A stretch of 64,000 bases of DNA from an uncultured Eubacteriales bacterium (GTDB lineage Bacteria; Bacillota; Clostridia; RGIG6154): the NCBI GenBank assembly GCA_964568815.1, contig CAZMRY010000001.1, forward strand, positions 14,055-78,054. Reading direction: 5' to 3'. Within the stretch, counting starts at the first letter, position 1. Each line of letters opens with the position of its first letter. A program made the translations under genes and the position numbers. Under the pieces are notes generated by a model that searched no databases, had not been told where the DNA came from, and worked only from the letters and a program-made list of their open reading frames with translations. Of the stretch, positions 5,121 through 64,000 are shown piece by piece.

Positions 5121-5927
5121 TTATTTATAATTATTTATTGTATTCTTTAACATTGCGAGTGCTTTTTTCATACTTTCCAAGCCTTCGCCGTTTTTTGTTT
5201 CAAATGAAATTGTTCCGTCATAATTAATGTATACAAGATTATCAAGCACTTTTTTCACATAATCGCTGTAACCGTCTTCAGGCAGCATACGCTCCATCTC
5301 AGCTATATGAACATGCTTTAGGCTGTCCTTGTATTTAACAACATCATCTGCATTATCATCATTTGCTATCATATGAATAGTATCACAAAGAAGTTGAATT
5401 CTTGGGTTATTTACATCATTTACAACTCTCATACCATCTGCTAAAGTATTGATAAAGTTACAAGCAGACGCACGAAGAGGCTCCATAACCACTGTAATAT
5501 CATATTTTTCACAAGCAGGAACAATTATATCCTTACAGATTTTTGCTATTTGTTCATAGCCCATATCCTGTGTAGTTTTTTCGTCAAGAGCTCTTGCAGG
5601 TGCACTGCCAAACACAACTTTTTTAACTCCAAGTTTTTTTAAACGACCAAAGGTTTTTTCTATATAGTCAGAAATAGCCTTTTCATTAACTTCACTTCCT
5701 GTAACCCTTATTGTTCTTGGGAAAAGTGCACAACTACATTCACATCCAAGTTCAATTTCCTTAAGAACATTGCATAGCTTATCAAATTCTTCATCTGGTA
5801 CTGATTCAACAAGCATTGCTCTCATTTCTACGTAATCAAATCCTGCTTCCTTAATCATTTTTATAAGCTCATAGTCTATCTCCGTTTTCATTGGTGTTGA
5901 AAACTCTTTACAAAAACCATACTTCAC
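5121..5927 (-). CDS. sugar phosphate isomerase/epimerase (xylose-isomerase-like TIM barrel)
   Basis: 268 aa with size and composition typical of the AP-endonuclease-2 / xylose-isomerase-like TIM-barrel family. It sits within the sugar locus. Confidence 0.65.
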   Translation of the reverse strand: MKYGFCKEFSTPMKTEIDYELIKMIKEAGFDYVEMRAMLVESVPDEEFDKLCNVLKEIELGCECSCALFPRTIRVTGSEVNEKAISDYIEKTFGRLKKLGVKKVVFGSAPARALDEKTTQDMGYEQIAKICKDIIVPACEKYDITVVMEPLRASACNFINTLADGMRVVNDVNNPRIQLLCDTIHMIANDDNADDVVKYKDSLKHVHIAEMERMLPEDGYSDYVKKVLDNLVYINYDGTISFETKNGEGLESMKKALAMLKNTINNYK

Positions 5928-5930
5928 TTT

Positions 5931-35790: not shown

Positions 35791-35829
35791 AAAAAATCTG
35801 CATCTCTATTAAAGAAATGCAGATTTTTT
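35791..35829. terminator. bidirectional terminator between convergent genes
   Basis: aaatctgcat(ctctattaaaga)atgcagattt with T/A runs on both sides. Confidence 0.55.
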
Positions 35830-36475
35830 ATTTCAAAGGATTTTCAAGTATATCTTCAATATTACAACCGAGAATACGGGAGAGTTTATAAAGGGTTTGA
35901 GCTTGTGCTTTGTCAATATCGTTGACTTTTTGTTCATACATTTGGATTGAACGGAGCTTAACGCCTGACATTTCTGCAAGCTCGGACTGAGATATTCCTC
36001 TGCTTTCACGGATGCGTTTTAGCTTTGTTTCAAGCTCGGCTTTGTTATAAAAGCTCTCCATACTGTCTATAAATTGAGTTATATCCATTTCGTGATAAAC
36101 CGAGTACATAGAAATAATTTCAGATAGCGGAATACGTTCAAAAATATCTTTGAAGCGATGTCCCGATGCCCACTGATATTCAGCGAGTGCCCAGCCTGCC
36201 CAATACTCGGGCGAGGCTCCTTCGCTATTTGTTGCAGGGGGTATTTTTTTATCCTTATACGCTTTTTTTATTATTTCACGTGCAAGCTCAACACCCGACA
36301 TTCCTGAAATTACAGCCGGATTTCCACTTTCAAATTTTTGTGCATATCCCGTTGTAACAAAGAGCGAAGCAATCCAATTTGCTTTAAACCCGCAGTCGTT
36401 TATGGCATAGTCAAGCATATCTGCAAGACATTCCTTTGCATCATTCAAATATAATCCGCTGTATGCGTGAGTCAT
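35828..36475 (-). CDS. hypothetical protein with C-terminal XRE HTH
   Basis: 215 aa whose C-terminus ESRGISQSELAEMSGVKLRSIQMYEQ...LYKLSRILGCNIEDIL is an XRE-type HTH. It overlaps the upstream gene by 35 nt. Confidence 0.5.
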   Translation of the reverse strand: MTHAYSGLYLNDAKECLADMLDYAINDCGFKANWIASLFVTTGYAQKFESGNPAVISGMSGVELAREIIKKAYKDKKIPPATNSEGASPEYWAGWALAEYQWASGHRFKDIFERIPLSEIISMYSVYHEMDITQFIDSMESFYNKAELETKLKRIRESRGISQSELAEMSGVKLRSIQMYEQKVNDIDKAQAQTLYKLSRILGCNIEDILENPLK

Positions 36476-37139
36476 CGTTTTTCAGCTCCTCTCTCAGAAT
36501 ATCCATTACAAAAATGTCATCTCGGTAGGATTTACTCTTTTTTATTTCCTGACGGTATGTTTTTCTTGCTGTTGTATCTCTGTCAAGAAATTTTGGATAA
36601 TAGATGCTTTTGTCAACTGGTGATGCATCTATAAATTTAATTTGTTCAAATGCTTTTTGTGATACCAAAACAGTCTGTTCTCCGAGCTTACCGAGCTTTA
36701 ATGCCTGATTTAAGCTGCGAAGCGGAAGTCCGTTTGACACAAAGCTTTCTGCATATCGAAAATATGAATCATCAGCACGATAGCCGACAATCACATCATA
36801 GCTTGATGTATCAATAGAATAATGCTCTATGATATATTCTCTTGCATCAACGGCTATTTCAGAACTCAGCTTGAATGTGCGATATTTAAGGAGTATGGCA
36901 ATCCAATTCAAAACAGTATGATTTCCGTCCATTAAATTTAAGGTTTTAAGTCCGTCAGTATTTAATGTATAACGGTTTATAAATCCGTCTGTGTTCTGCT
37001 TGCAAGCCCATTCCTTTGCCATTTCCTCTGAGCGTGTGCAGTAAAAGCCTTTTCCGTAATCATTATGCTCATTTCCTATATTTATATCTGGTATCTCTAT
37101 AATGTGGTCTGTTCCGTGAAGTAAAGTTATTGTATTCAT
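36441..37139 (-). CDS. hypothetical protein, DUF3990-like (N-terminal LLHGTD...DYGKGFYCT motif)
   Basis: 232 aa. The motif is reminiscent of the DUF3990 family, which co-occurs with small partner proteins on mobile elements. That assignment is from memory only. Confidence 0.4.
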   Translation of the reverse strand: MNTITLLHGTDHIIEIPDINIGNEHNDYGKGFYCTRSEEMAKEWACKQNTDGFINRYTLNTDGLKTLNLMDGNHTVLNWIAILLKYRTFKLSSEIAVDAREYIIEHYSIDTSSYDVIVGYRADDSYFRYAESFVSNGLPLRSLNQALKLGKLGEQTVLVSQKAFEQIKFIDASPVDKSIYYPKFLDRDTTARKTYRQEIKKSKSYRDDIFVMDILREELKNDDSRIQRIIFE

Positions 37140-37548: not shown

Positions 37549-39174
37549 ATGATTTATGTAGCGGCATATTGCAGAGTTTCAACGGACAAGGACGACCAAG
37601 CCAACAGCTTTGAAAGTCAAAAATCGTATTTTGAGGAGTACATAAAACGAAATCCCGATTGGGAGTTATACGAAATTTACGCAGATGAGGGCTTGTCAGG
37701 CACAAACACCAAAAAGCGTGCTGCCTTTAATAAAATGATTGCAGACGCACATTTGGGTAAATTCAACCTAATACTTACAAAGGAAGTAAGCAGATTTGCA
37801 AGAAATACAGTTGATACTTTGCAATACACAAGGGAGCTGAAAGCACTTAATATCAGTGTTTATTTTGCACTTGATAATATTGATACCCTTGCACCTGACG
37901 GAGAACTTAGACTAACCATCATGGCATCACTTGCTCAGGAAGAAAGCCGAAAGACCTCTGAGCGTGTAAAATGGGGACAAAAAAGACAAATGGAAAAAGG
38001 TGTGGTATTCGGTCGTGATATGCTCGGATATGATGTGAGAAACGGCGTTTTGCATATCAACGAAAACGGTGCGGAAATTGTAAGGCTTATTTACCACAAA
38101 TTTGTATATGAGAAAAAAGGCACATACACTATTGCAAGAGAATTGAGAGAAGCGGGTTATAAAACCATAACAGGCAATGCAATATGGTCAAATACTGTTA
38201 TTTTGAAAGTGTTGCGTAATGAAAAGTATTGCGGTGATTTAACACAAAAGAAAACCTATACACCCGATTATCTTTCGCATAAAAAGAAATATAATCACGG
38301 AGAAGAAGAATTTGTAACTTTGACAGACCATCACGAGCCTATCGTTTCAAGAGAGACTTGGGATATGGCACAGCTTGAGCTTGACAGACGTTCTCCTGAT
38401 GATTCAATCAAGTTAAGGCACAGTAACCGTTACCCATTGTCGGGCAAAATCCAATGCGGAGTATGCGGAAACCGATTTGTTTCAAGAACTAAAAAAAGAA
38501 AAGACGGAAGCAGATACAAAGCGTGGAGATGCTGTGAAGCAACACAGCACGGATTGCCCAAGATTGACAAAGCCGAAAATCATATCGGTTGCTCGGTTAA
38601 TTCACAAATTCGTGATGAATATTTTATGCTTGTCATTCAAAAGGTTATAGAAAGCCTGAATGTAAATAAAAAAGCAGTTTTGGACGGTGTTTTAAGTGTA
38701 TTAAAAACTGTATTTTCCACGAGTAAAAATTCTCCTGAAGATACAGACGGTATAAAAAAGAAAATAGAAAATCTTACATCAAAAACTAAGCGTCTTTTGG
38801 ATTTGTATTTGAGTGAGGATATAACAAAAGAAGAATATCGCACAAAAAAAGAAAACTGCGAAAATGAAATTTCGCAGTTAAATGAAAAAATGAAAGCTAT
38901 CCAAAAAGAAACACATTATATGTATGACAGTAATAATGCAATAACTGAAATCAGGGAATATCTTTCAGATATACTTTATGCAAAAAAACAGGACGAAATA
39001 TTTTATAAAAACATAATTGACAAGATTGTAGTTTTTGACAGAGAGCATTTAGATGTTTATTTAAATTTGCTCCCGCACAGATGGAAAACGGTGTTAAATT
39101 CAGCGTTGAGAGCTGATGACCTGTGTGGGAGCAATAAGCCCACGATTTACCTATATCGGTTAAGACTCCCTTAG
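37549..39174 (+). CDS. large serine recombinase (resolvase/invertase N-domain, recombinase domain, zinc ribbon, coiled-coil)
   Basis: MIYVAAYCRVSTDKDDQ carries the catalytic Ser in an RVS context. A CGVCGNRF...WRCC zinc ribbon and a C-terminal coiled-coil complete the 541 aa. SD GGAAAGGAG. The 3' end overlaps the att core and runs antisense into the catalase 5' segment. Confidence 0.9.
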   Translation: MIYVAAYCRVSTDKDDQANSFESQKSYFEEYIKRNPDWELYEIYADEGLSGTNTKKRAAFNKMIADAHLGKFNLILTKEVSRFARNTVDTLQYTRELKALNISVYFALDNIDTLAPDGELRLTIMASLAQEESRKTSERVKWGQKRQMEKGVVFGRDMLGYDVRNGVLHINENGAEIVRLIYHKFVYEKKGTYTIARELREAGYKTITGNAIWSNTVILKVLRNEKYCGDLTQKKTYTPDYLSHKKKYNHGEEEFVTLTDHHEPIVSRETWDMAQLELDRRSPDDSIKLRHSNRYPLSGKIQCGVCGNRFVSRTKKRKDGSRYKAWRCCEATQHGLPKIDKAENHIGCSVNSQIRDEYFMLVIQKVIESLNVNKKAVLDGVLSVLKTVFSTSKNSPEDTDGIKKKIENLTSKTKRLLDLYLSEDITKEEYRTKKENCENEISQLNEKMKAIQKETHYMYDSNNAITEIREYLSDILYAKKQDEIFYKNIIDKIVVFDREHLDVYLNLLPHRWKTVLNSALRADDLCGSNKPTIYLYRLRLP

Positions 39175-39833: not shown

Positions 39834-39860
39834 AGAGGAGCATTTCCGCTCCTCTGTTTT
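39834..39860. terminator. bidirectional rho-independent terminator
   Basis: agaggagc(atttcc)gctcctct is an 8-bp perfect stem with a T-run on the plus strand and an A-run upstream. It abuts the giant gene's stop codon. Confidence 0.65.
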
Positions 39861-42800
39861 AGTTTAGAAGGTTATATATTCTGTTAGCTCGGTTGAGTGG
39901 TACTCCGATTTTGCGAAGTCTTGATATTTTATCTACCTTCTTACTTCCCTTTCCATCCTTTTGACTATTCATAACCTTAGTCACATAATAGAAAGTTCTT
40001 GCATTCATAGAATTCTCACCATAGTTTTGAATATATGCGTCATATCCTGCCTGCTGATTTTCTGTAAGACTTGAGTAATAATATCCATCCACACTGCTAA
40101 AATCATATTGTGTTTTTGTTTCCCCAAACAACGCTATATTTACTTCTTGTTTTTCTTCAGGTGAAAGACTGTTGTCATTCGCAAGTGCTTCTCTCTTTAT
40201 AACTGAAAGTTCAGGCTCATATTCCCATTTTTCGTATACTTTTTTTGTTCTGCCATCTGTCATTGCGAAAAACTTTTCATATTTAGTTTCTTTGCTCACA
40301 TCATCATGCACATCATAATCATAATACAGTTTAGCAACCTTTTCAGGTGCAATACCAAAATCAATTAAATCCTGTGCTTTTTCTCTTTTACCTTTTTTGC
40401 CATCTTCACCTTTTGAGTAAAAGCTGATTTCTACTTCCGCCTTTTGTGATGGTGTAAGACCTTTGGTGCTTTCAAGTGTTTCGTGCCTTACCTGAGTTGA
40501 TGTTTTTGATTTGTCGCCGTCTTTTACGCTTTTAGCTTTGCTTGCAGCATTAATTGCATTGTATACATCAGTACGGCTTGTTTTTTTATCTTCTATAATT
40601 CTTTGATAAAGCTCTGTCTGTTCTGATGTCAGACTTCCAAAACCTTCCTCAACCCAACCACGAGAACCTTTTGTAGAACTTTTACCCCAAACTGTAGTTT
40701 TAATTGCATTACCAATGTTTTTGTCTATTGGATATTGCAGTTCTTCTTCACCTTTGTTATTAATTTTATAACTTCCACCTTTGTTGTATGCGTTAATACC
40801 TTCAACTGTCTTTTTGAGCTGTCCTGCTCCCGCCGGTAGAGTTCGATATGATAGAGGTACTACAAACTCGTTAAGAATAATATCCATTTTCTTTTTATTA
40901 CTAACCTTTTTAGGGTCACTAAATATTTTCACAAGCTCTGTTACATCGAACATGCCTGCAGATGCAGGGATTCTGCCGTCAGTTATAATTGATGTGAATG
41001 GTAAATCTTCCAAAACATTTACAACAGAATTTCCAATTGCAACAGCTGGATCTTCTGCTTCATCTTCAAGTTCAATCGCTCCTTCTTCAATTAACATTTC
41101 AATTGCATCAAAAGCATTAGGTACTCTAAGTTTTGTAAAATCATCAATTCCATCAAGAACAATACCAAGAGGGCTTTGTATTCCGTCATTACCAAACCAC
41201 TTTTCAAACAAATCAGCGAGCAATTCTGCAGCTAAACTATATTTGATAAATCTCCACGATGCTCTAACAATCGCTTCCGCCACTCCTTTAGAATCTTTCT
41301 TTGCATATCTGCTTAAATCTTTTGTGATGTTAGATATAAGATTGTTTGTTTCAAGCATATACTGTGTAATTACTTTACCGCTTTTCGAGTAAAAAAGGGT
41401 TGGCATACTTCCATAGCTTCGTCCACCTATAAGCTTTTTTGTATATGCATCCGCCTCTCTTATAGCCTCCTCACTTGGCATATTTCTTTTTACTATATTT
41501 TGATGATATCTTGCTCTCCAAATTAAGCCAGATGTTAGTGCATCTGTAAATTCAAGCGGTTTTCCTATTGCATCCAGAAAATGCTTTGGCTTAGACATCG
41601 TTTTAACTCTATCAGGATTTCCAACCTTAACTCTGTTAGTCAAGAATGTGCTCTTATCATCGAATCCGTCAGGTGTTTTTATATTCTTTAATGTGTGAAA
41701 TATACCATAAGCTAAATCAACGTATGAGAGTTCTTTTCTTGCTTGTGGAATAGTGGCAAAGTTCATAAACGGTGTTTTTGCATTTCCAACAATCATATTC
41801 GCTCCAATCTTACCTTGGAATCTGCTCCAATTTCTCAAAGTTCTTCGACCAAGATTATCTTCAACTACTCTATCCAAAAATCCTACTTGCTTACCTGCTA
41901 ATACATTTGCATATTTATCAAGATTAACAGCGTAGTTTCCAAGCTTATTTTTGTACCCTTCCTGAAGCTTTTCACTTATCTGTTTCAGTTTATCTTCATC
42001 TGTTAAAGTGTCATTCTCACCTATTTCTGCGATTTTCTCTTTAACACCGTCATCTGAATACTTGTATCTTATAGCGTTAGAAAAAGCTCGTACATTCTGA
42101 ATATCATCAGTATGGAAAATAACATCACAAACACCTGTAACATATTTTGCAAAGCCATCTATAGCATCATAGTCTGTAATACTATCTTTACTTCTATGAA
42201 GTGCATTTGCAAGCCATTTAATGCCGGGTTTTCGGTCTGCTGTTCTTCCCATTATTTCTGTAGGTAGACTTGTTACAGTATCAGACATAAAGAATTTATT
42301 CTCCAAATCAAAACCGAAAGCTCGTCCAAGTTCATTTAAGAATGAATCGCCTTTATTTTCAACAAAGTGTGGAAAATAATTTTTTCTGTATTCAACAGGT
42401 GCATATCCGTTCCTGATGCGAGCTTCATTCATCATTTCAAAAAGCTCGTTGTAAATCTTTCTGAATTCACCGATACACTTATCTATCTTGCCATAATCAA
42501 GCTTAGGATTTGCATCAATAAAAACATCTGCATCCCTTTTGAGCTGTGCAAGCTTCTCCCTGTCCTTCTCTATCCAGGATTTCTTACTGTTGACATTCTC
42601 TGCTTTTTGTGATACATTATCAGTGTGAACATCGTTATTCCAAACGTCTTGGACGTACATCTGAGGGACTTTACTGTCATTTAGAGCGGAATCGATGTTC
42701 CATTTTTTATTTATTGCATCTTTCAAGCCTGGAATATCCGGTATTGTTCCTGTAGAGACCTTTATCATTTGCTTATTTGAGAGAATTTTTCCTTTGTCGC

Positions 42801-45800
42801 TTATTGACTCCAAATAATATGTTACTCCATTATGTCTTTTAACATAATATATTCCTTCTTTACCATCAGGTCTCTTGAGATACAAAACGTCATCATAATT
42901 TTCTATAATATCCGGTATTTGTTTTTGGTCTTCAGCTGTAATCGGATATTTCTCCTTCGTAAGCTCTCCGTGTGAATTTTTAATATGCCTTATATCATTA
43001 TCATTCAAAGCATGAAATACATTTGAAACATCAATGCCATACTCTTTTTTTAAATCATTAATCAAACGTTTATTTACTTTTCCTATAATGATTTGTGCTT
43101 TTTGTTTAGGAAACAGATTATTATGTTTTACATTTGTTTCATGCGAATATCTATACGCATAATCGACATAAGATTCTATTTCTTCTTTAGTAGCAATATT
43201 TTTTCTTGTTCCGATGGTTTTATCAAATATTCCCTGTGCTTTTGTATCTTCTTGAATGTCCACTATCTCTCCATTGTCATACTTCGCAAGCTTTTCTTCA
43301 AGATATTCTATTTCGCCCTGCGTTTCTCCGAGAAACTGTACTGCATAAGCTTCACTGTGTTTGTTACCTTTTGCTACCTTTTGGCTAATTTCAAGTTTAT
43401 CAATATCATCAAGAAGCTTGTTTTTATATCTGTTGCTTTCAGCCTCATGAATGTCTATAGGTTCAAAAATCGCCTCTTTAATTGCATCCGCTTCTTCAGG
43501 ATTTGTTGTTATATCTTCTATATTTCTCTCCTGTGTTTCTGTAGCATAGCGAATACCTCCAAAAACTTTTTTGTCTTTCCAATTATCTGAATTTTCAAGA
43601 AGCTTTGTAATTCTTCCAATTCTTTCCGCTCTAACTTTTGTGTTTTCTTTTTTTATTTCTTTTTCAAGGGTTCTCACAGTTCCGTATGCTTCTATGTACT
43701 TATTTATGGCATCTGTATTTAAACCTAATGATTTAATCTTTTCAGACCTTATTGCTCCTGAAATAACCTTTTCCGCAATTTCTTTTTCTTCTTCGGTTAT
43801 GAGCAATTTTCCCATAATCTTTTCTGCGTTCTTTCTTGCTGAAGAAAGTTCACTATATGCGTTTCTAAGATATGCAACCTGTTCTTTTTCATTTCTTTCA
43901 ATCTCAACAGTTGGTTTTTCATCTGCAAGCGAATCATTAAAGTGCTTTACTTCATACAGATGGTCTTTGAATTCATATACTGCCTTTTCAAATTCGTGCT
44001 TTAAGTGTCCCTTTGCTTCATCTGTGTTATAATATGCATCAAGAGTTATTTCTTCTTTTCTTAAGCTGTCCGATACTTCCATTATCTTAAGCATACGGTC
44101 AGATGATGAAAGAATATCATCAGGGAACAGACTTGGGTGCATTTCGTTTAATTCCTGATATATACTGTCAACAGATGTTCCGCTTGTTGAAGAAACAGAA
44201 AGTCTTCCCATATATCTTCTTATGTCCTTAAAGAAATCAGGAATGTCAGCTGCAGACTCGCTGTCAAAGTAAATTTTGGTATTTCTTAGATAGTTTCTTA
44301 AATCTGCATATCCTTTATATGCTTCATCATTTACTATTTTACCGTTTTTATATGCTTCTTCAAAAAGTCTGTCAATGGTTTCCTGTGAAAGCTTGCCTGT
44401 CTTCATATACTCTGTTGACATTTCCTGAATTATAGGCTTTAAAAACTCTCTTGCAGTTCCAAGACGAACAGACATTGCATCTGCTACTTTTCTTACAGCA
44501 TCATTCTCATATCTTTCAAGTCTTGTTCTTGATTTAGCTGTTGACTGATATTCAGGTGCTGTTGTTTCGTTTTCTTCTGATATTACTGCTCCGAGTAAAT
44601 ATTTTTTGTCCTCTTGCATAGAATAATCATTGACAGTTTCCATAGACTGTGGTATATTGTCTATAGAGGTTGACTCATTTATATCTGAAGCACTATTTTC
44701 AGTGTGAGGTAGGTACGAGTCAACCTCTAAATTTATATCATAGAATACATTCCCAAATTTTGCTTTTCCAACTCTAACTACAGAATTAAAAATAACATTG
44801 TCAATTCTCACCTTCCCTCTATAATTCTCAAATCCGTTTTGTTTGAACAACTTATGATTTTTATGGTCTGGGCTTTGCCAATTCGCATTAGCATTCATAA
44901 GAAGGTCTTGAAGGCTGGGGACAAGACGCATTTTTTGATTAAACATTTCAGGATTGTTTTTAAGTAGCTCCGCACTTTCTTCACTGTGTGTAAACTCTTC
45001 TGCACTTAGTCGAATAAAAACAATTTCCTTTCCATTGTTATCTTTCACGGTAACTTTGTTATCACGATTTGCAATCAAATATGAATAAGCTGCATCTCTA
45101 TATTCCTCAGGTGTATTCAAACCTTTAAAAATATCTTTACCGGTCTCAACTATCCAAATGTCATTACCCTTATTGTCTTTCCCCTTATAAGCAGAATAGT
45201 TATCATCCGCAAACACCGTATCATCTCCACCGATATAAGGAACTGTCTTTTTAAGATATTCTTTATCCATTCCTTTTCTGTGAACAACTTCTCTGGCTTC
45301 AATCTCCCCGGCAGTCTTTTCATATAACCCCTGTGCAGTCATAGGTGTGTTATCATCAAGAAGAATAGATTCCTCAAATAAAGAATTGTCATATTCCATA
45401 AATAATAATCCGTAATCTTTATCCTCTGCAAGTTCATCATACAGTCTGTCAATTGTTTCAGGCTTTAGATTTCCGTTGCGTTGTGAATTGTAGTAATTTG
45501 AAACAAGTATTCTAAATCTGTCATCCATTCCTTCGTAAGCTTCTTTTCTCTGCTGTCTTAGTTCTAAAATTCTTCTTTCGTATTTACCTATCTTTCCTTC
45601 TTCTCTTAACTTGTTCTCCCAATAAGCAACACTTGAACCTCTTGCAAACCCTTCTATATCCTGAACTGCATGTTGCACTTCGTGTAGTAATGTATATAAA
45701 GTAAAGCTGTTATCCATTCCGTCTCTAATTGTTATAGTCTTGTTTTTTCTGTCATAGCTTCCGTATTCAGAAATATCTTTCTTAAACACAATTCTTAAAT

Positions 45801-48800
45801 CTTTCAACTGCGGATATGCCTCATAAAGTTCAGGATGGTCAAAATATGCTTCAAGCCTGTCCTGTGTACCTGCGTCAGGTGTTACCTTGCCATTTTGTGT
45901 GAAAGTATTACTCCAGATATTTTTAAGCTTTTCATATTCTTTCTTTTCTGCTTCAGTAAGCTCTCTTCCACCTTCCATTTCAAGAATGTATCTGTTCTGA
46001 ATATCAAGAAGCTCTCTGTATCTCGCATAATCAGGATGGTCTTTCTTAAATACAAGGTCGCCTTTTCTTACAAATCTTGCATTATCATCAGGAATTTCAT
46101 ATCTCCACCTTTTGTCTATTCCTTTATACCAACCTGTCTTTTTGAAGATTTCAGACTGCGGTTCGCCTTTAAGGTTCATTCGCCTTGCCTCTGCCAATGT
46201 CTTATTATTTGCTACAACAGAAGTCTCCCCGCCTAAAAGATGTTGTTTCCCATTACTTCCCTGTGCATCATTCTGACCTTTTTGCATATTATTAGTATTG
46301 ACATTTCCATTAGGATATGTTATTCTTTTTATAGAACCATAGTTGGTTACACCAAACGGCAATTGCAGCCTAGTCCGTGTAAGCCAATTATTGGTTCTTT
46401 TTATATTAGGCTCAACATAAAGAATATCGCTTGTATCTATAATGCTCTGCGTTTGTACAACACTATTAGGGTTATTATTTTTCCTACTATGAGTACTTAC
46501 AACCTTAATTTCATCAAGTACAACACCACTCTTGTCTTTTAATGGCAACAATTCCAAAACAGCCATTATTGGCAGTCCATCAGAATCATAAACCTCTCCA
46601 AACATAGTTATCCTGCTATCAAAACCTTTTGACTGCATAACAATTATTGGCTTCTCTAAAATCTCAGGCACCTGTTTAAGAATATCATCAGTCAAATAGC
46701 TATGTTTTTTTAATGATGTATTGATTTTGTTTGTGTCCCAGGTAATTTTTTGGTCTTTCACTCCAATGCTCTGCAATGCTGAAGATGTCGTTCCTATATT
46801 CAAAGACTGTCTATCAGGTCTCCCATTAGCAACCCAATTATCATAATCATTTACAAAGTTTTCATTAAGCAAATACCTCTTTTCTCCGCTCCCTTCTTTC
46901 GAAAATCTTACATTCCCCTCTTCGTCAACAAAAGGTGTTGCGTTTGAGTTGTCAATTGTTTTTCTTCTTTCTTTTAAGGCTCTGTCAAAGATATCAAGTG
47001 CTCTTTCGATATCACTTAAATCCTGTTCTGTACCTGTTATCGCGCTTTTAACCTTGTTATAAGCAGCTTTAAGAGCATTAAACATTCTTACTGCAACATT
47101 TCTGTTCTGCATTACAATTCTGTTTATGACCTTTTCATCAAGTCTTTTCATAGTAAAGTTGGCAACAAGCTCTTTGTCAATATCTTCTTTACCGCTGACT
47201 TTGTCGCCATATCTTTCAGCTATTGTGTTATATGCTTCTTTGTAGCTGTCTGTGTTTTCACCGCCATACATAATATCAAATGCAATCTTTTTATATGCAC
47301 TATACAAATCACTGTTTTCAATGTTATGTGTTACCTCGTGAAGTGCAACCATCGCACCGAGTCTTGTTTTAGCGTTTGCACTGTTTATGTGAATTACTCC
47401 GTCCTGTACAAATCCCATATTGTCAACAAGCTTTTTATTGCCCATTTCGTCTGTAACTTCAACCGCATCCAAATCTTCAATAACGATTTTTGAATTTGAA
47501 AGCTTTGCAAGACCTTCTATTACTTTAACAGGTGCAGAGTCAGGACTTAAAACCCAATCCTTTGAATATACTGTCACAAGTCCGCTTTTGCTTTGTTCAA
47601 GCTTAAGCCCTTTTTCAACATATCCGCCTGTTATTTCAAAAGGATTATGATTTTCAGACACAACCGAATGTTTAATAATCATACCCGCTTCTTCGTCTGT
47701 CAAAACTTTGCCATTTTCCATTTTCTGTTCAATACGATTAGCAAAATCAACAATTTCCGTATTTGTGCTATTCTTACAATATGTTACCGCATCCGCAATG
47801 TATTCATCAAATAGCTTAGCCTGTTTTACCGTTTTTCCTAACTCTGATGTGTTGACTGTGTCAACAGCATCTCTGTAGCTTGCAATTGCAGATTTAACTG
47901 TACCTGTGCTTCCTGCAGAAATGATAAATCCTGCAAGTGCTGATGATTTCATTTGTGCGAAATCTTCCTTTGTGTATGAAGCAAAATCAAAAGTTTCTTT
48001 CAAAAGTTCAATCGCAGATACTGTTTCACCTCTCTCTGCATGTTTGCCCGCAACAATTTCAGTTCCTGTTTGAAGGAATTCTTCCGCTCCTTCCCCAACA
48101 CCTTCTATTGCTTGTTTGCCTAAAAACTTCATACTGTTTACTGCAATCTGAGCACCTTTTTCGCTCATTTTTCCTTTTCTGAGAATTGCCATTATTCCGT
48201 CTTCGAGTTTTTCAGCCCCTATTTTTTTACTTACGGTTTTCCCTCCAAAGATAAGCTTATCCGCAATATAACTTATTCCAAACTCAAGTGTCGCTTCAAC
48301 AAGTGCTGTGTTTGTTGCAAGTGCTTTTATATCTTCTTCCGACATATCGCTATTTTGAAGAAGTTCTACATATTGACTTCCAACTGTTCTTCTGAACATA
48401 TCAGCTGACGACGCAGCTGCACCTCCTATTCTTGCTCCCGTTAACGGATTACCCATAAAGACACCCAGTGTCGCTCCTGCAAGCTGTCCCACTGCCTGTG
48501 CCTTTGATTGATTTATAAACTGTGGAGCATAGTTTGAAAGTGTAGAAACAAAAGTATCAAAAGCATTATTATCCGTATATGCCTCTTTGTTGTTTTCTCT
48601 TAATCTCTTGTCTAATTGCTGATACACTTCCGCTGCCTCAATATCATCAGTTGCATATTCCCAAGAGTTCGCACCTGTATCCGCAATCTTTTCTCCTATT
48701 GTACCGCTTTTAAAATTTGCTCCTATTCTTCCAAACAAGCCGTCATCATATTCATTATCTTTATTTTCATCATAATACTTATACGCCTTGATTTTATCAT

Positions 48801-49599
48801 CAGCAAGAACTATTTTACCTTCCGTTTTCATATTTCTGTCATATCTTGCCTGTTCATCTCCTACTCTCGCTTCAGAAAGAATACTTATAGGGCTGAACGA
48901 ATAATCTTTTTTATAAAAATTCTGCACCACACCATATTCATTCTTTTCTCTTTGCGCCTCAGATATTCCGCTCCTTGTGTCAACTTCTCCCTTTTTATTA
49001 AGATGCACGCCTTTCGTTTCATTTGCATTTAATATTCCAAGCACAGCATTATATTCTGCCGAAAGTGCATTAAGTCTGTTTCTTTTCCTGTCAAGTGTGC
49101 TGTAATAATTATAGGCTATTTTCTGTTCATCAGTTCCGTATCTCAACACATCAGGATTTGTTTTATATAGATTATATCCACTTTCTTCAACCCCTGTAAG
49201 CTGAGGTAATTGTGCAGTTTCTCTTTGTATCTGTGTAGCAAGCTCATTTTTTCTGTTAATAAAGAAATTCTTACTTCCGTAAGCAGGAATAGAACTGTCC
49301 CTTGTGCTTCTTCTCCAATTATACGCATCTTCATCTATAAAGCTTGATTTAAAGCCGTTATATATAACTTCGTTGTTATCTTTTTGATACTGTGCTTCTC
49401 TTTCTTTTTGTCTATTGTATGCTATGGCTTCAAGTGTTGTAGTTTGTTTCCTTTCAGTTTCAGGCACATAGGCAGTACCTGTTAGCTTTTGAAGATTTAT
49501 TGAATTTCCTTTTACAGGATTATTATAATTTATAACCGCTCCCTGATTTTTCTTCTCTATCTCTTTATTATATTTTAATACATCTGTCAGTTTCTTCAT
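39859..49599 (-). CDS. giant (3246-aa) phage/mobile-element polyvalent-type protein with two zincin-like HExxH motifs
   Basis: Uninterrupted 9.7-kb ORF containing AMVALHEVTHNIENSD and TLLHEVQHAVQDIEG (HExxH). It has long coiled-coil-rich linkers and lies in the same operon as the lysis and virion genes. Confidence 0.75.
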   Translation of the reverse strand: MKKLTDVLKYNKEIEKKNQGAVINYNNPVKGNSINLQKLTGTAYVPETERKQTTTLEAIAYNRQKEREAQYQKDNNEVIYNGFKSSFIDEDAYNWRRSTRDSSIPAYGSKNFFINRKNELATQIQRETAQLPQLTGVEESGYNLYKTNPDVLRYGTDEQKIAYNYYSTLDRKRNRLNALSAEYNAVLGILNANETKGVHLNKKGEVDTRSGISEAQREKNEYGVVQNFYKKDYSFSPISILSEARVGDEQARYDRNMKTEGKIVLADDKIKAYKYYDENKDNEYDDGLFGRIGANFKSGTIGEKIADTGANSWEYATDDIEAAEVYQQLDKRLRENNKEAYTDNNAFDTFVSTLSNYAPQFINQSKAQAVGQLAGATLGVFMGNPLTGARIGGAAASSADMFRRTVGSQYVELLQNSDMSEEDIKALATNTALVEATLEFGISYIADKLIFGGKTVSKKIGAEKLEDGIMAILRKGKMSEKGAQIAVNSMKFLGKQAIEGVGEGAEEFLQTGTEIVAGKHAERGETVSAIELLKETFDFASYTKEDFAQMKSSALAGFIISAGSTGTVKSAIASYRDAVDTVNTSELGKTVKQAKLFDEYIADAVTYCKNSTNTEIVDFANRIEQKMENGKVLTDEEAGMIIKHSVVSENHNPFEITGGYVEKGLKLEQSKSGLVTVYSKDWVLSPDSAPVKVIEGLAKLSNSKIVIEDLDAVEVTDEMGNKKLVDNMGFVQDGVIHINSANAKTRLGAMVALHEVTHNIENSDLYSAYKKIAFDIMYGGENTDSYKEAYNTIAERYGDKVSGKEDIDKELVANFTMKRLDEKVINRIVMQNRNVAVRMFNALKAAYNKVKSAITGTEQDLSDIERALDIFDRALKERRKTIDNSNATPFVDEEGNVRFSKEGSGEKRYLLNENFVNDYDNWVANGRPDRQSLNIGTTSSALQSIGVKDQKITWDTNKINTSLKKHSYLTDDILKQVPEILEKPIIVMQSKGFDSRITMFGEVYDSDGLPIMAVLELLPLKDKSGVVLDEIKVVSTHSRKNNNPNSVVQTQSIIDTSDILYVEPNIKRTNNWLTRTRLQLPFGVTNYGSIKRITYPNGNVNTNNMQKGQNDAQGSNGKQHLLGGETSVVANNKTLAEARRMNLKGEPQSEIFKKTGWYKGIDKRWRYEIPDDNARFVRKGDLVFKKDHPDYARYRELLDIQNRYILEMEGGRELTEAEKKEYEKLKNIWSNTFTQNGKVTPDAGTQDRLEAYFDHPELYEAYPQLKDLRIVFKKDISEYGSYDRKNKTITIRDGMDNSFTLYTLLHEVQHAVQDIEGFARGSSVAYWENKLREEGKIGKYERRILELRQQRKEAYEGMDDRFRILVSNYYNSQRNGNLKPETIDRLYDELAEDKDYGLLFMEYDNSLFEESILLDDNTPMTAQGLYEKTAGEIEAREVVHRKGMDKEYLKKTVPYIGGDDTVFADDNYSAYKGKDNKGNDIWIVETGKDIFKGLNTPEEYRDAAYSYLIANRDNKVTVKDNNGKEIVFIRLSAEEFTHSEESAELLKNNPEMFNQKMRLVPSLQDLLMNANANWQSPDHKNHKLFKQNGFENYRGKVRIDNVIFNSVVRVGKAKFGNVFYDINLEVDSYLPHTENSASDINESTSIDNIPQSMETVNDYSMQEDKKYLLGAVISEENETTAPEYQSTAKSRTRLERYENDAVRKVADAMSVRLGTAREFLKPIIQEMSTEYMKTGKLSQETIDRLFEEAYKNGKIVNDEAYKGYADLRNYLRNTKIYFDSESAADIPDFFKDIRRYMGRLSVSSTSGTSVDSIYQELNEMHPSLFPDDILSSSDRMLKIMEVSDSLRKEEITLDAYYNTDEAKGHLKHEFEKAVYEFKDHLYEVKHFNDSLADEKPTVEIERNEKEQVAYLRNAYSELSSARKNAEKIMGKLLITEEEKEIAEKVISGAIRSEKIKSLGLNTDAINKYIEAYGTVRTLEKEIKKENTKVRAERIGRITKLLENSDNWKDKKVFGGIRYATETQERNIEDITTNPEEADAIKEAIFEPIDIHEAESNRYKNKLLDDIDKLEISQKVAKGNKHSEAYAVQFLGETQGEIEYLEEKLAKYDNGEIVDIQEDTKAQGIFDKTIGTRKNIATKEEIESYVDYAYRYSHETNVKHNNLFPKQKAQIIIGKVNKRLINDLKKEYGIDVSNVFHALNDNDIRHIKNSHGELTKEKYPITAEDQKQIPDIIENYDDVLYLKRPDGKEGIYYVKRHNGVTYYLESISDKGKILSNKQMIKVSTGTIPDIPGLKDAINKKWNIDSALNDSKVPQMYVQDVWNNDVHTDNVSQKAENVNSKKSWIEKDREKLAQLKRDADVFIDANPKLDYGKIDKCIGEFRKIYNELFEMMNEARIRNGYAPVEYRKNYFPHFVENKGDSFLNELGRAFGFDLENKFFMSDTVTSLPTEIMGRTADRKPGIKWLANALHRSKDSITDYDAIDGFAKYVTGVCDVIFHTDDIQNVRAFSNAIRYKYSDDGVKEKIAEIGENDTLTDEDKLKQISEKLQEGYKNKLGNYAVNLDKYANVLAGKQVGFLDRVVEDNLGRRTLRNWSRFQGKIGANMIVGNAKTPFMNFATIPQARKELSYVDLAYGIFHTLKNIKTPDGFDDKSTFLTNRVKVGNPDRVKTMSKPKHFLDAIGKPLEFTDALTSGLIWRARYHQNIVKRNMPSEEAIREADAYTKKLIGGRSYGSMPTLFYSKSGKVITQYMLETNNLISNITKDLSRYAKKDSKGVAEAIVRASWRFIKYSLAAELLADLFEKWFGNDGIQSPLGIVLDGIDDFTKLRVPNAFDAIEMLIEEGAIELEDEAEDPAVAIGNSVVNVLEDLPFTSIITDGRIPASAGMFDVTELVKIFSDPKKVSNKKKMDIILNEFVVPLSYRTLPAGAGQLKKTVEGINAYNKGGSYKINNKGEEELQYPIDKNIGNAIKTTVWGKSSTKGSRGWVEEGFGSLTSEQTELYQRIIEDKKTSRTDVYNAINAASKAKSVKDGDKSKTSTQVRHETLESTKGLTPSQKAEVEISFYSKGEDGKKGKREKAQDLIDFGIAPEKVAKLYYDYDVHDDVSKETKYEKFFAMTDGRTKKVYEKWEYEPELSVIKREALANDNSLSPEEKQEVNIALFGETKTQYDFSSVDGYYYSSLTENQQAGYDAYIQNYGENSMNARTFYYVTKVMNSQKDGKGSKKVDKISRLRKIGVPLNRANRIYNLLN

Positions 49600-60025: not shown

Positions 60026-60790
60026 TTATTCCTTTTTCATCTTCTCATAATGAGCCTGATATTCTGCATCGGTCTTTCCGGGCATAAATTTTTTATACAT
60101 TGCAAGTGTTTCTCCTGGAATTGTTATTCCTGAAGAACCTGTTCCACTCTTATTTCCGTTTAAGTGGTCCTTTGAATTCATCTGATTAAGCGTTGACTGC
60201 TTTGCCTTTGATTCACGGGAAGCTATAATCGAATCTAAATTTGCAAGTTTAAATGCTTCAGATAAGGTCTTACCGCCGTTTTCGTATATCCTTCTCATTT
60301 CCTCAAAGGTATCAAGCTTCATAACATCATCAAAGCTCTTGATACTTGGGTCAATGGCTTTAATGATTTCAACTTCATCATTAAATGCTTTTTCAGATGC
60401 CTTCATTTCATTGTTTTTGATAATTTCCTGAGCTTTTTTAACATCAGGATTGTTTTTAACTATGTCATTAATAACTCCGAGAGCATCTTCAGCTCCCGTA
60501 CCAAACACCTCTTCAATTCTGGCGTTCAGTTTTGATGCATCCTCTTTTTCAAGTGATGCCTTGAAATCATCAACATTTTTGAAACCTCTTTTTTCGGCTA
60601 CACCTTTCCAGAAATCGTTTTCAGCTTTAAGCCTTGCTTCCGACTCTCTTCTTGCTGCAGCAAATCTGCTGTTATCAGCATCAGTCTGTGTGCCTTTTTC
60701 AGGTTCGGCGACCCCCTGACCGTTTCCGCCTTCAGTTCCAACAGGTTCAGCGACTTCCTGCCCTTTTACGCTTGTGTTTTCTTTTTCCAT
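60026..60790 (-). CDS. putative phage scaffolding protein
   Basis: 254 aa, acidic and alpha-helical/coiled-coil with a Gly-rich N-terminus, upstream of the capsid gene. SD GAAAGGAGAAAGTT. Confidence 0.5.
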   Translation of the reverse strand: MEKENTSVKGQEVAEPVGTEGGNGQGVAEPEKGTQTDADNSRFAAARRESEARLKAENDFWKGVAEKRGFKNVDDFKASLEKEDASKLNARIEEVFGTGAEDALGVINDIVKNNPDVKKAQEIIKNNEMKASEKAFNDEVEIIKAIDPSIKSFDDVMKLDTFEEMRRIYENGGKTLSEAFKLANLDSIIASRESKAKQSTLNQMNSKDHLNGNKSGTGSSGITIPGETLAMYKKFMPGKTDAEYQAHYEKMKKE

Positions 60791-60904
60791 AACTTTCTCC
60801 TTTCGATTTTTGCGCTATTCGTGCGAATTTGGTTTGTTGATTGTTCCTTCATCTTAGCCTTCGCCTTGAGGAGAAGGTGTCACCGCAGGTGACGGATGAG
60901 GTGG

Positions 60905-61024
60905 CTACTTTCCCGTTCTTAAGTCCTTGCCCTTTTTAACTTTGGGCTTGGCACCTGCCTTAGGCGGATTAATAGCATTTATAACGCCGTTACCGCTGTT
61001 TAAAGGCTTCATTCTTCTTGCCAT
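60905..61024 (-). CDS. small basic protein (39 aa), missing from the ORF track
   Basis: Minus-strand reading MARRMKPLNSGNGVINAINPPKAGAKPKVKKGKDLRTGK. It is preceded by AAAGGAGAG with a 7-nt spacer and flanked on both sides by palindromic repeat elements. Confidence 0.4.
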   Translation of the reverse strand: MARRMKPLNSGNGVINAINPPKAGAKPKVKKGKDLRTGK

Positions 61025-61293
61025 AAACAACTCTCCTTTCTAAATAATTCCTAACAGCCTTCCCCTCGAGGGGAAGGTGTTGAGCGAAGCGAAACGGATG
61101 AGGTGTCAACTCCTCACTCCAACCTTCTAACTGAATTTTACCGAAAATACCCTATCAGTTATCGCAGACTTTTGTAACAACTTTCACTTGTATTCGCATT
61201 GCTTACCAATGCTCATTATCGCTTGGTTGTTCCTCTTTCACAAAACCCACATTCTTGCCTTTTGTGCGGCTTCGTTTCACTCGCATATCAAAT

Positions 61294-61319
61294 AAAAAAA
61301 AGAAGCCCCACAGGACTTC
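61294..61319 (-). terminator. terminator after the SecB-like gene
   Basis: Minus strand gaagtcc(tgtg)gggcttc followed by T8. Confidence 0.5.
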
Positions 61320-61359
61320 CAAGATAACAAAGAGCACCCTTTCGGATGCTCCACAATTA

Positions 61360-61764
61360 TTATTTATCAACATTTTCTTTCAAAAGATTATTTATATTAA
61401 GAGGTGGAATAACCAATGGTGTAATACCGGGTTGAGTCGTTAATAAAGAAATCTGACTTCTTACATAAGGGAACATTATAGCAACTGTATTCACCTTTAA
61501 TATATCATCATTTTCATGACCACTTTCATTATTATACTCAAACACCCCAACCGTAGTCAAAGACAATTTATAAGTACCGCCTTCTTCGTTTATGTCTGTT
61601 TTTATTTGCACTTTATGCATATTTTTATTTTCTTCATTTGCAAAATAATCAACTTTAAATGATGTTGTCAGTTTCTTATCACCACTTTTCCTCTTTTGGA
61701 AAAATTCAAACTGTTCGTGATATAAATCTTTAATTTTCAATTGTGCTACTATATTTTTACTCAT
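61360..61764 (-). CDS. SecB-like chaperone (third component of a toxin-antitoxin-chaperone module)
   Basis: VAIMFPYVRSQISLLTTQPGITPLVIPPLNINNLL aligns with E. coli SecB [33 protein letters not shown]. The N-terminal IVAQLKIKDLYHEQFEF matches FQIQRIYTKDISFE. 134 aa. Confidence 0.75.
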   Translation of the reverse strand: MSKNIVAQLKIKDLYHEQFEFFQKRKSGDKKLTTSFKVDYFANEENKNMHKVQIKTDINEEGGTYKLSLTTVGVFEYNNESGHENDDILKVNTVAIMFPYVRSQISLLTTQPGITPLVIPPLNINNLLKENVDK

Positions 61765-62162
61765 ACCGTTCCTCCCGCATAGTTATAATTTACTTCTCCG
61801 AATTCTTTAACTAAAGACATCGACATGCTGATTTCAATACTAAAGTTTTCTGTCGCAATTTGTTTAAATTCGATCTGCCTTTCTCCACGTTCATATCTTT
61901 TAACCGAATATACTTTCTCTATTAAATCCGGATTTTCATACAACAACGCCAATAACACTTTTGCACAACTATTAACATTATTTCTGCCTTGTTCCCATTT
62001 TTCAACCGCCTTTTTAGTAACGCCAAGCATATTCGCAAGAGCAGTTTGTGTAAAATCAAAGTTTGCTCTAAATTTTTTTATAAACTCTCCATCTACAGCA
62101 CCAACATCCAATGTTTTTATTTCAACGTGTTTGGCATTCATCAATTTTTTAATATCAATCAT
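61761..62162 (-). CDS. HigA-like XRE-family antitoxin with a C-terminal extension (putative chaperone-addiction region)
   Basis: HTH FDFTQTALANMLGVTKKAVEKWEQGRNNVN followed by a ~50-aa tail. It overlaps the secB-like start by 4 nt. Confidence 0.65.
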   Translation of the reverse strand: MIDIKKLMNAKHVEIKTLDVGAVDGEFIKKFRANFDFTQTALANMLGVTKKAVEKWEQGRNNVNSCAKVLLALLYENPDLIEKVYSVKRYERGERQIEFKQIATENFSIEISMSMSLVKEFGEVNYNYAGGTV

Positions 62163-62192
62163 TTTTTCTCCTCCATCGCTTTCATAATAACA

Positions 62193-62615
62193 TTATTTAC
62201 CGATACTTTCATAATATTCATCTACTATCTTTCTTAATGAATTTTTTTCTTTGTGCGAAAGATTATCCTTTTTAGCATGAGTGTACACATGTAATATGAA
62301 TGCACAATTATTATATTTGTCAACAATTACTATGCATCTATATCCATTTGACTTACCTACATTTCTTTTTTCATCACCACACCTTATTTTGGCATATCCT
62401 ACAAAAAGTTTTGTTCCTATTTTGTATAATAATGCACATTCATTTCTACCAAAGCCGTGCATAATTTCTTCACCAACTGCCGTTTCTATCTTTTTAATTT
62501 GCGTTTCCGTTAAATCTCTTATATCATTTTTTAAATTATATGGTGATGTTTTAAATACTTCTTCTATTACTTCTGCATCACAAGAAACTACTATATTATT
62601 CAAAAATAACACCAC
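62193..62615 (-). CDS. HigB/RelE-superfamily toxin (COG4679 / Gp49-like 'phage-related protein' family)
   Basis: VGKSNGYRCIVIVDKYNNCAFILHVYTHAKKDNLSHKEKNSLRKIV matches the GKSGGYRVI...LLHVYxK...L signature of HigB-like toxins. It lies upstream of its HTH antitoxin (the hig gene order). Confidence 0.65.
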   Translation of the reverse strand: MVLFLNNIVVSCDAEVIEEVFKTSPYNLKNDIRDLTETQIKKIETAVGEEIMHGFGRNECALLYKIGTKLFVGYAKIRCGDEKRNVGKSNGYRCIVIVDKYNNCAFILHVYTHAKKDNLSHKEKNSLRKIVDEYYESIGK

Positions 62616-62785
62616 TCCATTCTCACCCTATTTAATAGGGCAAGATTATGATAACACACTTTTTTCATTTTGTAAAGACTTTTTTCACAGTATTCAGCAT
62701 CTACATTATACTATTCTTACAACTGACAAACAATGACATAAAAAAATAGAAGTGAGAATAACTCCTCACTCCTAACTTCTGACTC

Positions 62786-64000
62786 TTAATTCTGCATTGT
62801 GAATTCTGCATTTTGCATTTGCACATTCCCTTCAACCGCTCCTTTAAGCAACTGTTCCTGCTCCATTGCTGCAGCTGCTCTTTGTTGTGCCTCTATCTGC
62901 TCCTGTTTCTGTTTTTCTATTTGTTCTTCAAGCTGTTTCTTGATTCTGTTTGCTCCGGGATAATGAAGTGTCGCCATTAAGGTCCAGAACATCATAAGAG
63001 AATTAAAGTCAGTCGGGTCACCAAAACAGCCTTTTTCAAAATTCATTCTTGTTTCCTGCCACATTGCCTCTCTCGAAGATGCAAGACTTCCTGATGGGTC
63101 AGTTGCAAATAAATAATCAAGGTTGTAATAATATTCTCCTGCTTCGTCTATGTCAATAAAGTCATACTTTGAAAGTTCCTCGAATACAACATTTCCCTTT
63201 TCATCTTCGTTATAAACAGGTCTCGGTTCATCAGCAAAAGCAATATACATCTTTGCCATAATTTCAAAAACCTTGCCATAACAAGCATTTTTCATAATCT
63301 TCTTGCTTTCAAGTCTGCCTGCAGTCTGCTTTGCTGCAAACTCTTTAGCAGTTCCGCTTGTTGCCGTCGGGTCTCTTCTTCCCTGAAAAGAATCTGTTAT
63401 ACCTAAGAGATTTCTTGCAATCTGATAAAGCCTGTCACCCTGCTCATAATTTCTTGAAACATCAGCCTGTGCCGTATATGTATCTATCATAGCCTTCTCT
63501 GCAGCATTTTCAATTTCTACCACCTTAAAATTATCGTCTGTAGTTTTGGTTTTCATACCCTTTGGCACTGTAAAGAAGCTTCCGCCTGTCAAAAGCTTTT
63601 CAATGGTATCTGTATCAATCTTTTTCAGTTCATTCTGCATATCCTTTATAACTTCAACATCAGACTCACCTAAAAACGAGCCGTATTTTGAAGTGTTTCT
63701 TCTCAAAACCACAGGATATATGTCAGGCTTGTAGTATTTAACTTTTGTGCCCTTTTCAAGCACAAGGGTCGGCACTATACTTCCGTCTTCATTTTTCTCT
63801 TCTCTTAAAACAAGGTCGTCGTCAATGATTTCATATTCCTCTGTCACCATCTCAAACTTTTTACTTCCGCAGTTGCACACCTTATTCATGCAGACCTCTC
63901 CGCACTTTTTGCATCTTCTCAGTTTTCTTGCCTGGTAGTCGTCTAAAAATTCAAGAAGTGTGTCATTAACCCAGCTTAAACGGCCGATACATCCGTCCTT
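62786..64000 (-). CDS. phage structural protein (possible portal), partial; the ORF continues upstream beyond the window end
   Basis: In-frame coding continues 5' of the annotated ATG at 63889 (...RRCKKCGEVCMNKVCNCGSKKFE is a Cys-rich zinc-finger-like stretch) with no stop up to position 64000. The C-terminus is Gln/Glu-rich and coiled-coil. Confidence 0.35.
   Translation of the reverse strand, partial: KDGCIGRLSWVNDTLLEFLDDYQARKLRRCKKCGEVCMNKVCNCGSKKFEMVTEEYEIIDDDLVLREEKNEDGSIVPTLVLEKGTKVKYYKPDIYPVVLRRNTSKYGSFLGESDVEVIKDMQNELKKIDTDTIEKLLTGGSFFTVPKGMKTKTTDDNFKVVEIENAAEKAMIDTYTAQADVSRNYEQGDRLYQIARNLLGITDSFQGRRDPTATSGTAKEFAAKQTAGRLESKKIMKNACYGKVFEIMAKMYIAFADEPRPVYNEDEKGNVVFEELSKYDFIDIDEAGEYYYNLDYLFATDPSGSLASSREAMWQETRMNFEKGCFGDPTDFNSLMMFWTLMATLHYPGANRIKKQLEEQIEKQKQEQIEAQQRAAAAMEQEQLLKGAVEGNVQMQNAEFTMQN

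Follow-up and report, generated by a model that had tools for sequence, protein, structure and literature searches.

Gene content of the tripartite locus

Investigation of a 64-kb stretch of DNA from an uncultured Eubacteriales bacterium of the Clostridia (GenBank assembly GCA_964568815.1, contig CAZMRY010000001.1, positions 14,055 to 78,054 of the forward strand; this whole stretch is referred to as the window) revealed three consecutive minus-strand open reading frames (ORFs) at window positions 61360-62615, in the order toxin, antitoxin and SecB-like chaperone (T-A-C), which very probably constitute a HigBAC-type tripartite toxin-antitoxin-chaperone (TAC) module. The toxin gene (62193..62603, minus strand) encodes 136 amino acids (aa) from a TTG start, with a predicted HigB2/RelE fold and the motif GKSNGYRCIVIV...AFILHVYTH; the antitoxin gene (61761..62162, minus strand) encodes 133 aa matching Pfam MqsA_antitoxin and HTH_3, and the gene for the SecB-like chaperone of the SecB-TA/HigC type (61360..61764, minus strand) encodes 134 aa matching Pfam SecB. 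Toxin and antitoxin genes are separated by 30 nucleotides (nt), and the antitoxin stop and chaperone start share the 4 nt ATGA (61761-61764). The initial annotation of a TAC module of three co-oriented minus-strand genes is borne out in coordinates, gene order and overlap. Consensus scans placed one promoter upstream and terminators downstream, which is the layout of a TAC operon, and the locus contains every structural element of such a module that is open to in silico testing. The cassette is read here, with somewhat better than even confidence, as a "moron", an autonomous unit among the head genes of a prophage integrated in the genome of a gut Clostridial bacterium, and this reading includes a role in defence.

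Regarding the toxin, translation from the GTG at 62615 would yield 140 aa and from the TTG at 62603 136 aa; since the gene callers on an identical metagenomic contig (L001) use TTG 62603 and homologues begin at the equivalent position, the gene was taken as 62193-62603, and the start at GTG 62615 in the initial annotation was corrected. A shorter toxin of 88 aa, from an internal ATG (M53 of the 140-aa GTG-start ORF), was rejected because the N-terminal 50 residues, which include an SPYNLKKD motif, are conserved across homologues of ~40% identity and were modelled with a predicted local distance difference test (pLDDT) score >90. The toxin scored 26.5 bits against the Pfam RelE family PF06296 (gathering score 27), and precomputed Pfam annotation gives PF06296 for the window toxin and a few homologues and nothing for most family members. 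The AlphaFold2 model is confident (pLDDT 91), and this predicted structure supports the proposed RelE/HigB fold and membership of the RelE/HigB superfamily. When 1.84 billion cluster representatives were searched exhaustively with a profile, only 218 relatives of the toxin were retrieved at E <= 1e-3, nearly all of 130-150 aa; they form a small, distinct HigB2-like subfamily. Single-sequence phmmer searches with the toxin and with the chaperone against the PDB gave no match, and profiles and structure prediction were therefore required for both proteins.

The antitoxin consists of a conserved N-terminal segment (aa 1-22, 62097-62162), an XRE/HigA2-type helix-turn-helix (HTH) domain (aa 23-85, 61908-62096) and a C-terminal extension presumed to be a chaperone-addiction (ChAD) tail (aa 86-133, 61764-61907), all on the minus strand, with mean pairwise identities over 17 distinct homologues of 0.47, 0.64 and 0.22, respectively. 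It was matched by Pfam MqsA_antitoxin (PF15731) at 33.7 bits against a threshold of 30, and by HTH_3 too. The best solved relative, V. cholerae HigA-2 (5jaa, E 7.6e-5), covers residues 23-83 of 133 only and has no counterpart of the 48 residues 86-133, in agreement with the earlier remark that the protein is about 50 aa longer than a bare HTH. The extension keeps a [DEN][FY]xx[IV] motif (F99 in the window protein) and an aromatic/hydrophobic C-terminus, and the number of aromatic residues per extension ranges from 2 to 7 among homologues. Being variable and aromatic, and absent from the two-component homologue, the extension follows the pattern expected of a ChAD tail; such tails are variable, conserved within subgroups and equipped with aromatic anchor residues (PMC5105189; 10.1101/2024.02.24.581848).

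The 134-aa chaperone had been described as SecB-like over its whole length, and this was confirmed by a match to Pfam SecB (PF02556) at 46.2 bits (gathering score 26, E 5.5e-12) spanning residues 10-132 of 134. Against the NCBIfam SecB equivalogs, which represent the housekeeping export protein, the scores were 19-43 bits with cut-offs of 103-277, and the PADLOC profile PD-T4-9_C, for the chaperone of CmdTAC, was matched with E 2.9e-15. The AlphaFold2 model comprises four strands followed by a long helix; Foldseek searches with this model retrieved E. coli SecB (1qyn, E 2e-6, template modelling (TM) score up to 0.76) and M. tuberculosis Rv1957 bound to its ChAD peptide (5mtw, E 3e-6), with TM scores against these two proteins of 0.64-0.76 and H. 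influenzae SecB also among the top PDB matches. The SecA-binding residues of E. coli SecB are D20, E24 and E77 (PMC6377645), and in a profile-to-1qyn hidden Markov model (HMM) alignment these acidic positions correspond to Q18, F22 and S67, which argues against an export role. Judged from its sequence, the chaperone is not a housekeeping SecB.

Operon signals, candidate operator and distribution

A sigma-70-type promoter is predicted by consensus scan at 62648..62676 on the minus strand (TTTACA, a 17-nt spacer and the extended -10 element TG-n-TATCAT). Further upstream, just 3' of the portal stop codon (62786), lies a terminator-like hairpin with a 12-pair stem followed by TTTTTTT (62747..62774, minus strand), which is predicted to shield the cassette from read-through of the late operon. 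The cassette is closed by two tandem hairpins resembling intrinsic terminators (61331-61352 and 61301-61320, minus strand), again from the consensus scan. Between the -10 box and the ribosome-binding site of the toxin gene is a perfect palindrome, CCCTATT-A-AATAGGG (62626..62640), and the upstream regions of 16 diverged cassettes, whose proteins are ~40% identical, all show TTTACA-17-TATnAT followed immediately by CCCTA-N5-TAGGG.

The pattern CCCTA-N5-TAGGG occurs once in the window, where no copy is expected by chance, and exactly once in each of 28 fetched loci (L012-L014 among them share one assembly-end sequence), all but one of which were demonstrated to contain the triad; in 27 matching loci with a located toxin start it lies ~25-45 nt upstream of that start. 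It was found in none of the 95 other fetched loci, which include 80 portal-related phage loci and 9 loci in which different genes accompany the SecB-like one. Comparison of homologous loci showed that the arms of the palindrome are invariant and that variation is confined to its centre, as would be expected if a dimeric DNA-binding protein, in the simplest case the HTH antitoxin, recognises the site. The palindrome is probably an operator for autorepression by the HTH antitoxin, by analogy with autoregulated type II toxin-antitoxin (TA) operons. A role as an RNA hairpin was rejected, given arms that are invariant without covariation, variation only in the centre and a loop of merely 1-3 nt.

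Signatures of selection were obtained by comparison with the nearest relative, L012 (78-80% amino-acid identity), for which the ratio of non-synonymous to synonymous substitution rates (dN/dS) was 0.15, 0.12 and 0.075 for the toxin, antitoxin and chaperone genes, respectively, indicating purifying selection on all three. The possibility that the cassette is a decaying, non-functional remnant, for which nothing specific speaks except that the toxin falls just under its Pfam threshold, has very little to recommend it in view of the three intact ORFs, these dN/dS values of 0.075-0.15, the conserved promoter and palindrome and a contig of 100% identity obtained from an independent sample. Non-ATG start codons predominate in the toxin gene, with TTG in the window and TTG or GTG in 15 of 17 other loci, as opposed to mostly ATG in the antitoxin and chaperone genes, which fits low translation of the toxin.

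Triad, promoter and palindrome are shared by the 28 fetched loci, which come from gut and rumen Clostridia, and the T-A-C order is kept in at least 20 homologous loci, including six metagenomic settings. Among loci from GTDB genomes, 14 of 22 have the triad, all of them in metagenome-assembled genomes (MAGs) of Clostridia (Lachnospiraceae, Oscillospiraceae, Christensenellaceae, Faecalimonas and others). The exact cassette was detected in no GTDB representative genome. A tblastn search with the chaperone gave one weak, unannotated match among GenBank phages and none among PLSDB plasmids, so that deposited phages and plasmids offer no annotated precedent.

Two further arrangements involving SecB-like genes were observed. 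Distant SecB-like genes in four Clostridia MAGs from GTDB (L037, L039, L040 and L041) follow genes for proteins of ~190 aa (YHGTT...WCG.G.YFYD) and ~87 aa, a layout that we take to resemble that of CmdTAC, with an ADP-ribosyltransferase toxin, a small antitoxin and a chaperone; if this reading is true, several TAC types would occur in Clostridia. In L021 (IMGVR_UViG_3300006217_000223), positions 5192-6390 hold a different, short toxin candidate of 110 aa, a 133-aa long-tailed HTH protein and a SecB-like gene directly upstream of a 997-aa gene presumed to be structural, and this trio is possibly a second phage-borne TAC adjoining structural genes.

The whole unit recurs in unrelated genomic surroundings, which bear on what the cassette is for. 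It adjoins MobA/relaxase genes on mobilisable elements (L004-L007) and serine recombinases (L012 and L018), and plasmid-borne and horizontally acquired TACs were noted by Sala 2013 (PMC3581621); these associations would suit a cassette serving purely for addiction or stabilisation, in which loss of the prophage or other carrier element releases the toxin post-segregationally and no phage is sensed. For such a purpose a plain two-gene TA system already suffices. E. coli TACs protect against phage and surplus chaperone abolishes this defence (PMC9519451), and to this extent experiments have so far linked the added chaperone/ChAD layer to sensing. Moreover, copies at a chromosomal site beside LysR and bacterial microcompartment (BMC) genes (L008-L010) are not obviously on an element that can be lost. 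Pure addiction is consequently regarded as the lesser possibility, unlikely but deserving of attention. A different proposal, that general proteotoxic stress occupies the chaperone, frees the toxin and slows growth, draws on the architecture shared with M. tuberculosis Rv1955-Rv1957, for which this model was put forward (PMC3581621, PMC5105189); carriage by a phage and other mobile elements and patchy spread among Clostridia MAGs are typical of accessory or defence cargo, and such a stress-responsive growth regulator is considered improbable. Defence against competing phages, with the cassette as prophage cargo, is the reading retained.

Prophage context and insertion site

The prophage spans the window from ~37.5 kb to the window end. 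Along the window its order is, in the first part, a serine recombinase (37549-39174), a 3,246-aa polyvalent protein, holin, amidase and large tail proteins, and, in the second part, an SU10-type adaptor, the major capsid protein, a decoration-like and a scaffold-like gene, a basic 39-aa ORF, the cassette and the portal. The cassette had been placed in a phage structural region between portal and scaffold genes, and its flanks agree with this: on one side lies the portal gene (62786..64000, minus strand; P22_portal/phrog_156), which is intact at 623 aa and extends past the window end, and on the downstream side the scaffold-like gene (60026-60790, minus strand). A truncated portal, as suggested by a 367-aa entry in the ORF list, was rejected because the frame is open to the window end and contig L001 gives the full 623-aa ORF. 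This contig, which derives from an independent sample, is 100% identical over window positions 60874-64000.

Genes for the toxin, antitoxin and chaperone were detected in none of 80 IMG/VR phage contigs with a portal of 42-52% identity, and in most of these contigs the portal is followed almost directly by a small basic ORF and the scaffold gene. A few related phages hold other cargo at the portal-scaffold junction, namely lysis cassettes: as read from translations, the junction of L058 (8061-11648) carries an amidase-like ORF and small hydrophobic holin-like ORFs, and that of L115 (8214-9105) a holin-like ORF and a peptidase-like ORF. The junction is thus a variable site, and since it is empty or holds other cargo in relatives that all do without the cassette, the latter behaves as a mobile "moron". 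DNA homology to L012 amounts to 79% over 1,341 nt, from 62653 to 61316, and ends inside the second terminator; as this homology spans promoter to terminators and ends there, the cassette appears to be a mobile, self-contained unit.

Its position inside the head module, between portal and scaffold, and the report of a solitary SecB in C. difficile phage phiCD119 (PMC3581621) could be taken to mean that the SecB-like protein assists phage morphogenesis, as a chaperone in the assembly of capsid or portal, with an incidental toxin-antitoxin pair next to it. This role as a head-assembly factor was rejected as exceedingly improbable: a SecB-like gene is present in none of the 80 related phages, whose portal, scaffold and capsid genes are homologous, the chaperone always accompanies this toxin and antitoxin, also at non-phage sites, and the cassette has its own promoter and terminators. 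A TAC cassette acquired by the prophage remains the preferred interpretation of the locus.

Several other features of the region were recorded. The conserved, very basic 39-aa ORF (60905-61024, minus strand; MARRMKPLNSGNGVINAINPPKAGAKPKVKKGKDLRTGK), between the cassette and the scaffold gene, has a good ribosome-binding site and gave 39 weak tblastn matches (E 0.004-0.6) in contigs of related phages, of which ~35 occupy the equivalent place between portal and scaffold. It is flanked by two copies of a ~48-nt repeat (61056-61105 and 60856-60903, minus strand), each with a GC-rich hairpin, e.g., CCTTCCCCTCGAGGGGAAGG; these copies may serve as terminators or processing sites or form a small repeat element. 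The cassette itself is bracketed by an imperfect direct repeat of 25 nt (22/25 identical), with copies at 61108-61132 and 62760-62784 that are 1,652 nt apart, the latter copy lying directly 3' of the portal stop codon. This repeat is marginally above chance, as shuffled sequences reach 21/25 and none of 100 reach 22; it may be an insertion scar and is recorded here not as evidence.

The portal contains a Cys-rich stretch, CKKCGEVCMNKVCNCG (~63860-63919, minus strand), resembling a zinc ribbon inserted mid-protein. At the prophage end, the 3,246-aa ORF (39859-49599, minus strand) has MuF_C, LPD23, LPD3, a DUF6782 metallopeptidase-like region and a PBECR3 domain, a nuclease domain of the Barnase-EndoU-ColicinE5/D-RelE kind, and represents the 'large polyvalent proteins' that phages and conjugative elements are believed to deliver along with their DNA. 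Adjacent to the recombinase gene, on the side away from the prophage, overlapping genes encode a DUF3990 protein and an HTH_3 protein (36441-37139 and 35828-36475, minus strand), which may be another two-gene regulatory or TA-like pair.

Proposed function and comparison with known systems

The most likely mechanism, modelled on the characterised M. tuberculosis and E. coli systems, would have the operon transcribed in the lysogen from its own promoter and repressed at the CCCTATTAAATAGGG palindrome by the HTH antitoxin, alone or together with the toxin. The SecB-like tetramer would bind the aromatic-containing C-terminal tail of the antitoxin, which in this bound state would stay soluble, protected from proteases and free of aggregation, and would neutralise the toxin. 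If the chaperone were titrated away, most likely by an abundant structural protein of a superinfecting phage, the antitoxin would be lost and the freed HigB2-like toxin would cut mRNA on the ribosome, with translation arrest and aborted infection as the outcome, by which the prophage would exclude competitors; the same circuit would penalise loss of the element, with addiction as a side effect. In the ChAD mechanism of TAC systems, the toxin is set free once a competitor occupies the chaperone (PMC5105189, PMC6377645); for a prophage HigBAC, the trigger is the binding of HigC to gpV, the major tail protein of lambda, via a ChAD-like aromatic pattern (10.1101/2024.02.24.581848), and HigB-type TAC toxins are ribosome-dependent mRNases (PMC9098466). 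By this analogy, defence or exclusion is the function that we would favour as the main one for the cassette, with an assurance well short of that attached to its identity.

Several points weigh against this interpretation as a whole. The toxin is 0.5 bit short of the PF06296 gathering score and its match to HigB-2, with a profile of 53 sequences, is weak (E 0.08); the chaperone model is of moderate confidence (pLDDT 77.5 from 10 homologues), and the residue alignment of the SecA cluster comes from a low-scoring HMM match (22 bits) and is supportive only. Toxicity, chaperone dependence, operator binding and the phage trigger are all inferred, and most cassettes are in mobile elements, which is equally compatible with pure addiction. 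Furthermore, a defence system that responds to structural proteins of phages would have to spare those made by its own prophage on induction, which is a difficulty for this reading.

A phage-borne role in addiction or exclusion, as suggested in the initial annotation, is not a new idea, being documented for prophage HigBAC and for CmdTAC in E. coli; TAC systems, prophage-borne HigBAC and an anti-phage role have been published (Bordes 2016; Guillet 2019; Vassallo 2022; Mets 2024), and as early as 2012 attention had been drawn to TACs of Firmicutes, of plasmids and of prophage regions (PMC3581621). The additions made here are modest, consisting of a coherent Clostridial lineage, a conserved promoter with a candidate operator, a small toxin subfamily and an insertion site in the head module. 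TACs have been characterised experimentally in Mycobacterium and E. coli, and the window cassette together with ~28 related loci represents a coherent mobile HigBAC lineage of gut and rumen Clostridia, where phages are abundant and the defence repertoire is poorly charted. The CCCTA-N5-TAGGG pattern, together with a small toxin subfamily mostly missed by annotation, makes such cassettes easy to recognise and annotate, and the window offers a concrete case of prophage cargo at the portal-scaffold junction, which opens no new mechanism. A bolder proposal, which we hold to be doubtful, is that of a distinct Clostridial HigBAC lineage with its own toxin subfamily and a universally conserved operator, moving as one unit among phages, mobilisable elements and chromosomes, in which a chaperone encoded in the head module must discriminate between the capsid or scaffold proteins of its own phage and those of a competitor; if true, this would provide a tractable model for the self/non-self specificity of TAC chaperones among phage structural proteins in Gram-positive gut bacteria.

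Regarding known systems, the chaperone shares with the housekeeping SecB of Proteobacteria (1qyn, 1fx3) the same fold over its full length, with TM scores of up to 0.76 and the family PF02556, but differs in the replacement of the SecA-binding cluster by Q18, F22 and S67, in its Gram-positive Clostridial host and in the ATGA overlap that joins its gene to the antitoxin gene. With CmdTAC/PD-T4-9 (Vassallo 2022, PMC9519451; 2024, PMC11618068) the cassette has in common a TAC organisation, with a defence role that is probable for the window cassette, and a chaperone matching PD-T4-9_C; however, the CmdTAC toxin CmdT acts on mRNA as an ADP-ribosyltransferase, its antitoxin CmdA bears no relation to HigA, the window toxin and antitoxin had no match to the PD-T4-9 profiles, and the toxin had no PADLOC match of any kind, which places the cassette outside CmdTAC.

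The comparison with the M. tuberculosis TAC Rv1955-Rv1956-Rv1957 (HigB1-HigA1-SecB-TA) made at the outset holds for the architecture, which is shared, and not for the toxin-antitoxin pair, which is closer to V. cholerae HigBA-2 than to M. tuberculosis HigBA1. HigBA-2 (5jaa, 5ja8, 8a0x) is a two-component system without chaperone, in which HigA-2 ends at the end of the HTH, whereas the window antitoxin runs 48 residues further and is followed by a SecB gene, so that in structural terms the cassette corresponds to HigBA-2 plus a chaperone. The closest functional analogue, likened by its published description, is HigBAC of E. coli NT1F31 (Mets et al. 2024, 10.1101/2024.02.24.581848), an anti-phage abortive system in which the chaperone is the sensor; it is likewise prophage-encoded and combines a HigB-type toxin, a HigA-type HTH antitoxin with a variable aromatic tail and a SecB-like chaperone (HigC). 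The two differ in host phylum, Clostridia in place of Enterobacteriaceae, and in location, since NT1F31 HigBAC is found in a lambdoid immunity region downstream of cI and the window cassette between portal and scaffold of a phage whose portal is of the P22 type and whose adaptor is of the SU10 type, and they differ also in the toxin, which in the window belongs to a small subfamily of 135-150 aa.

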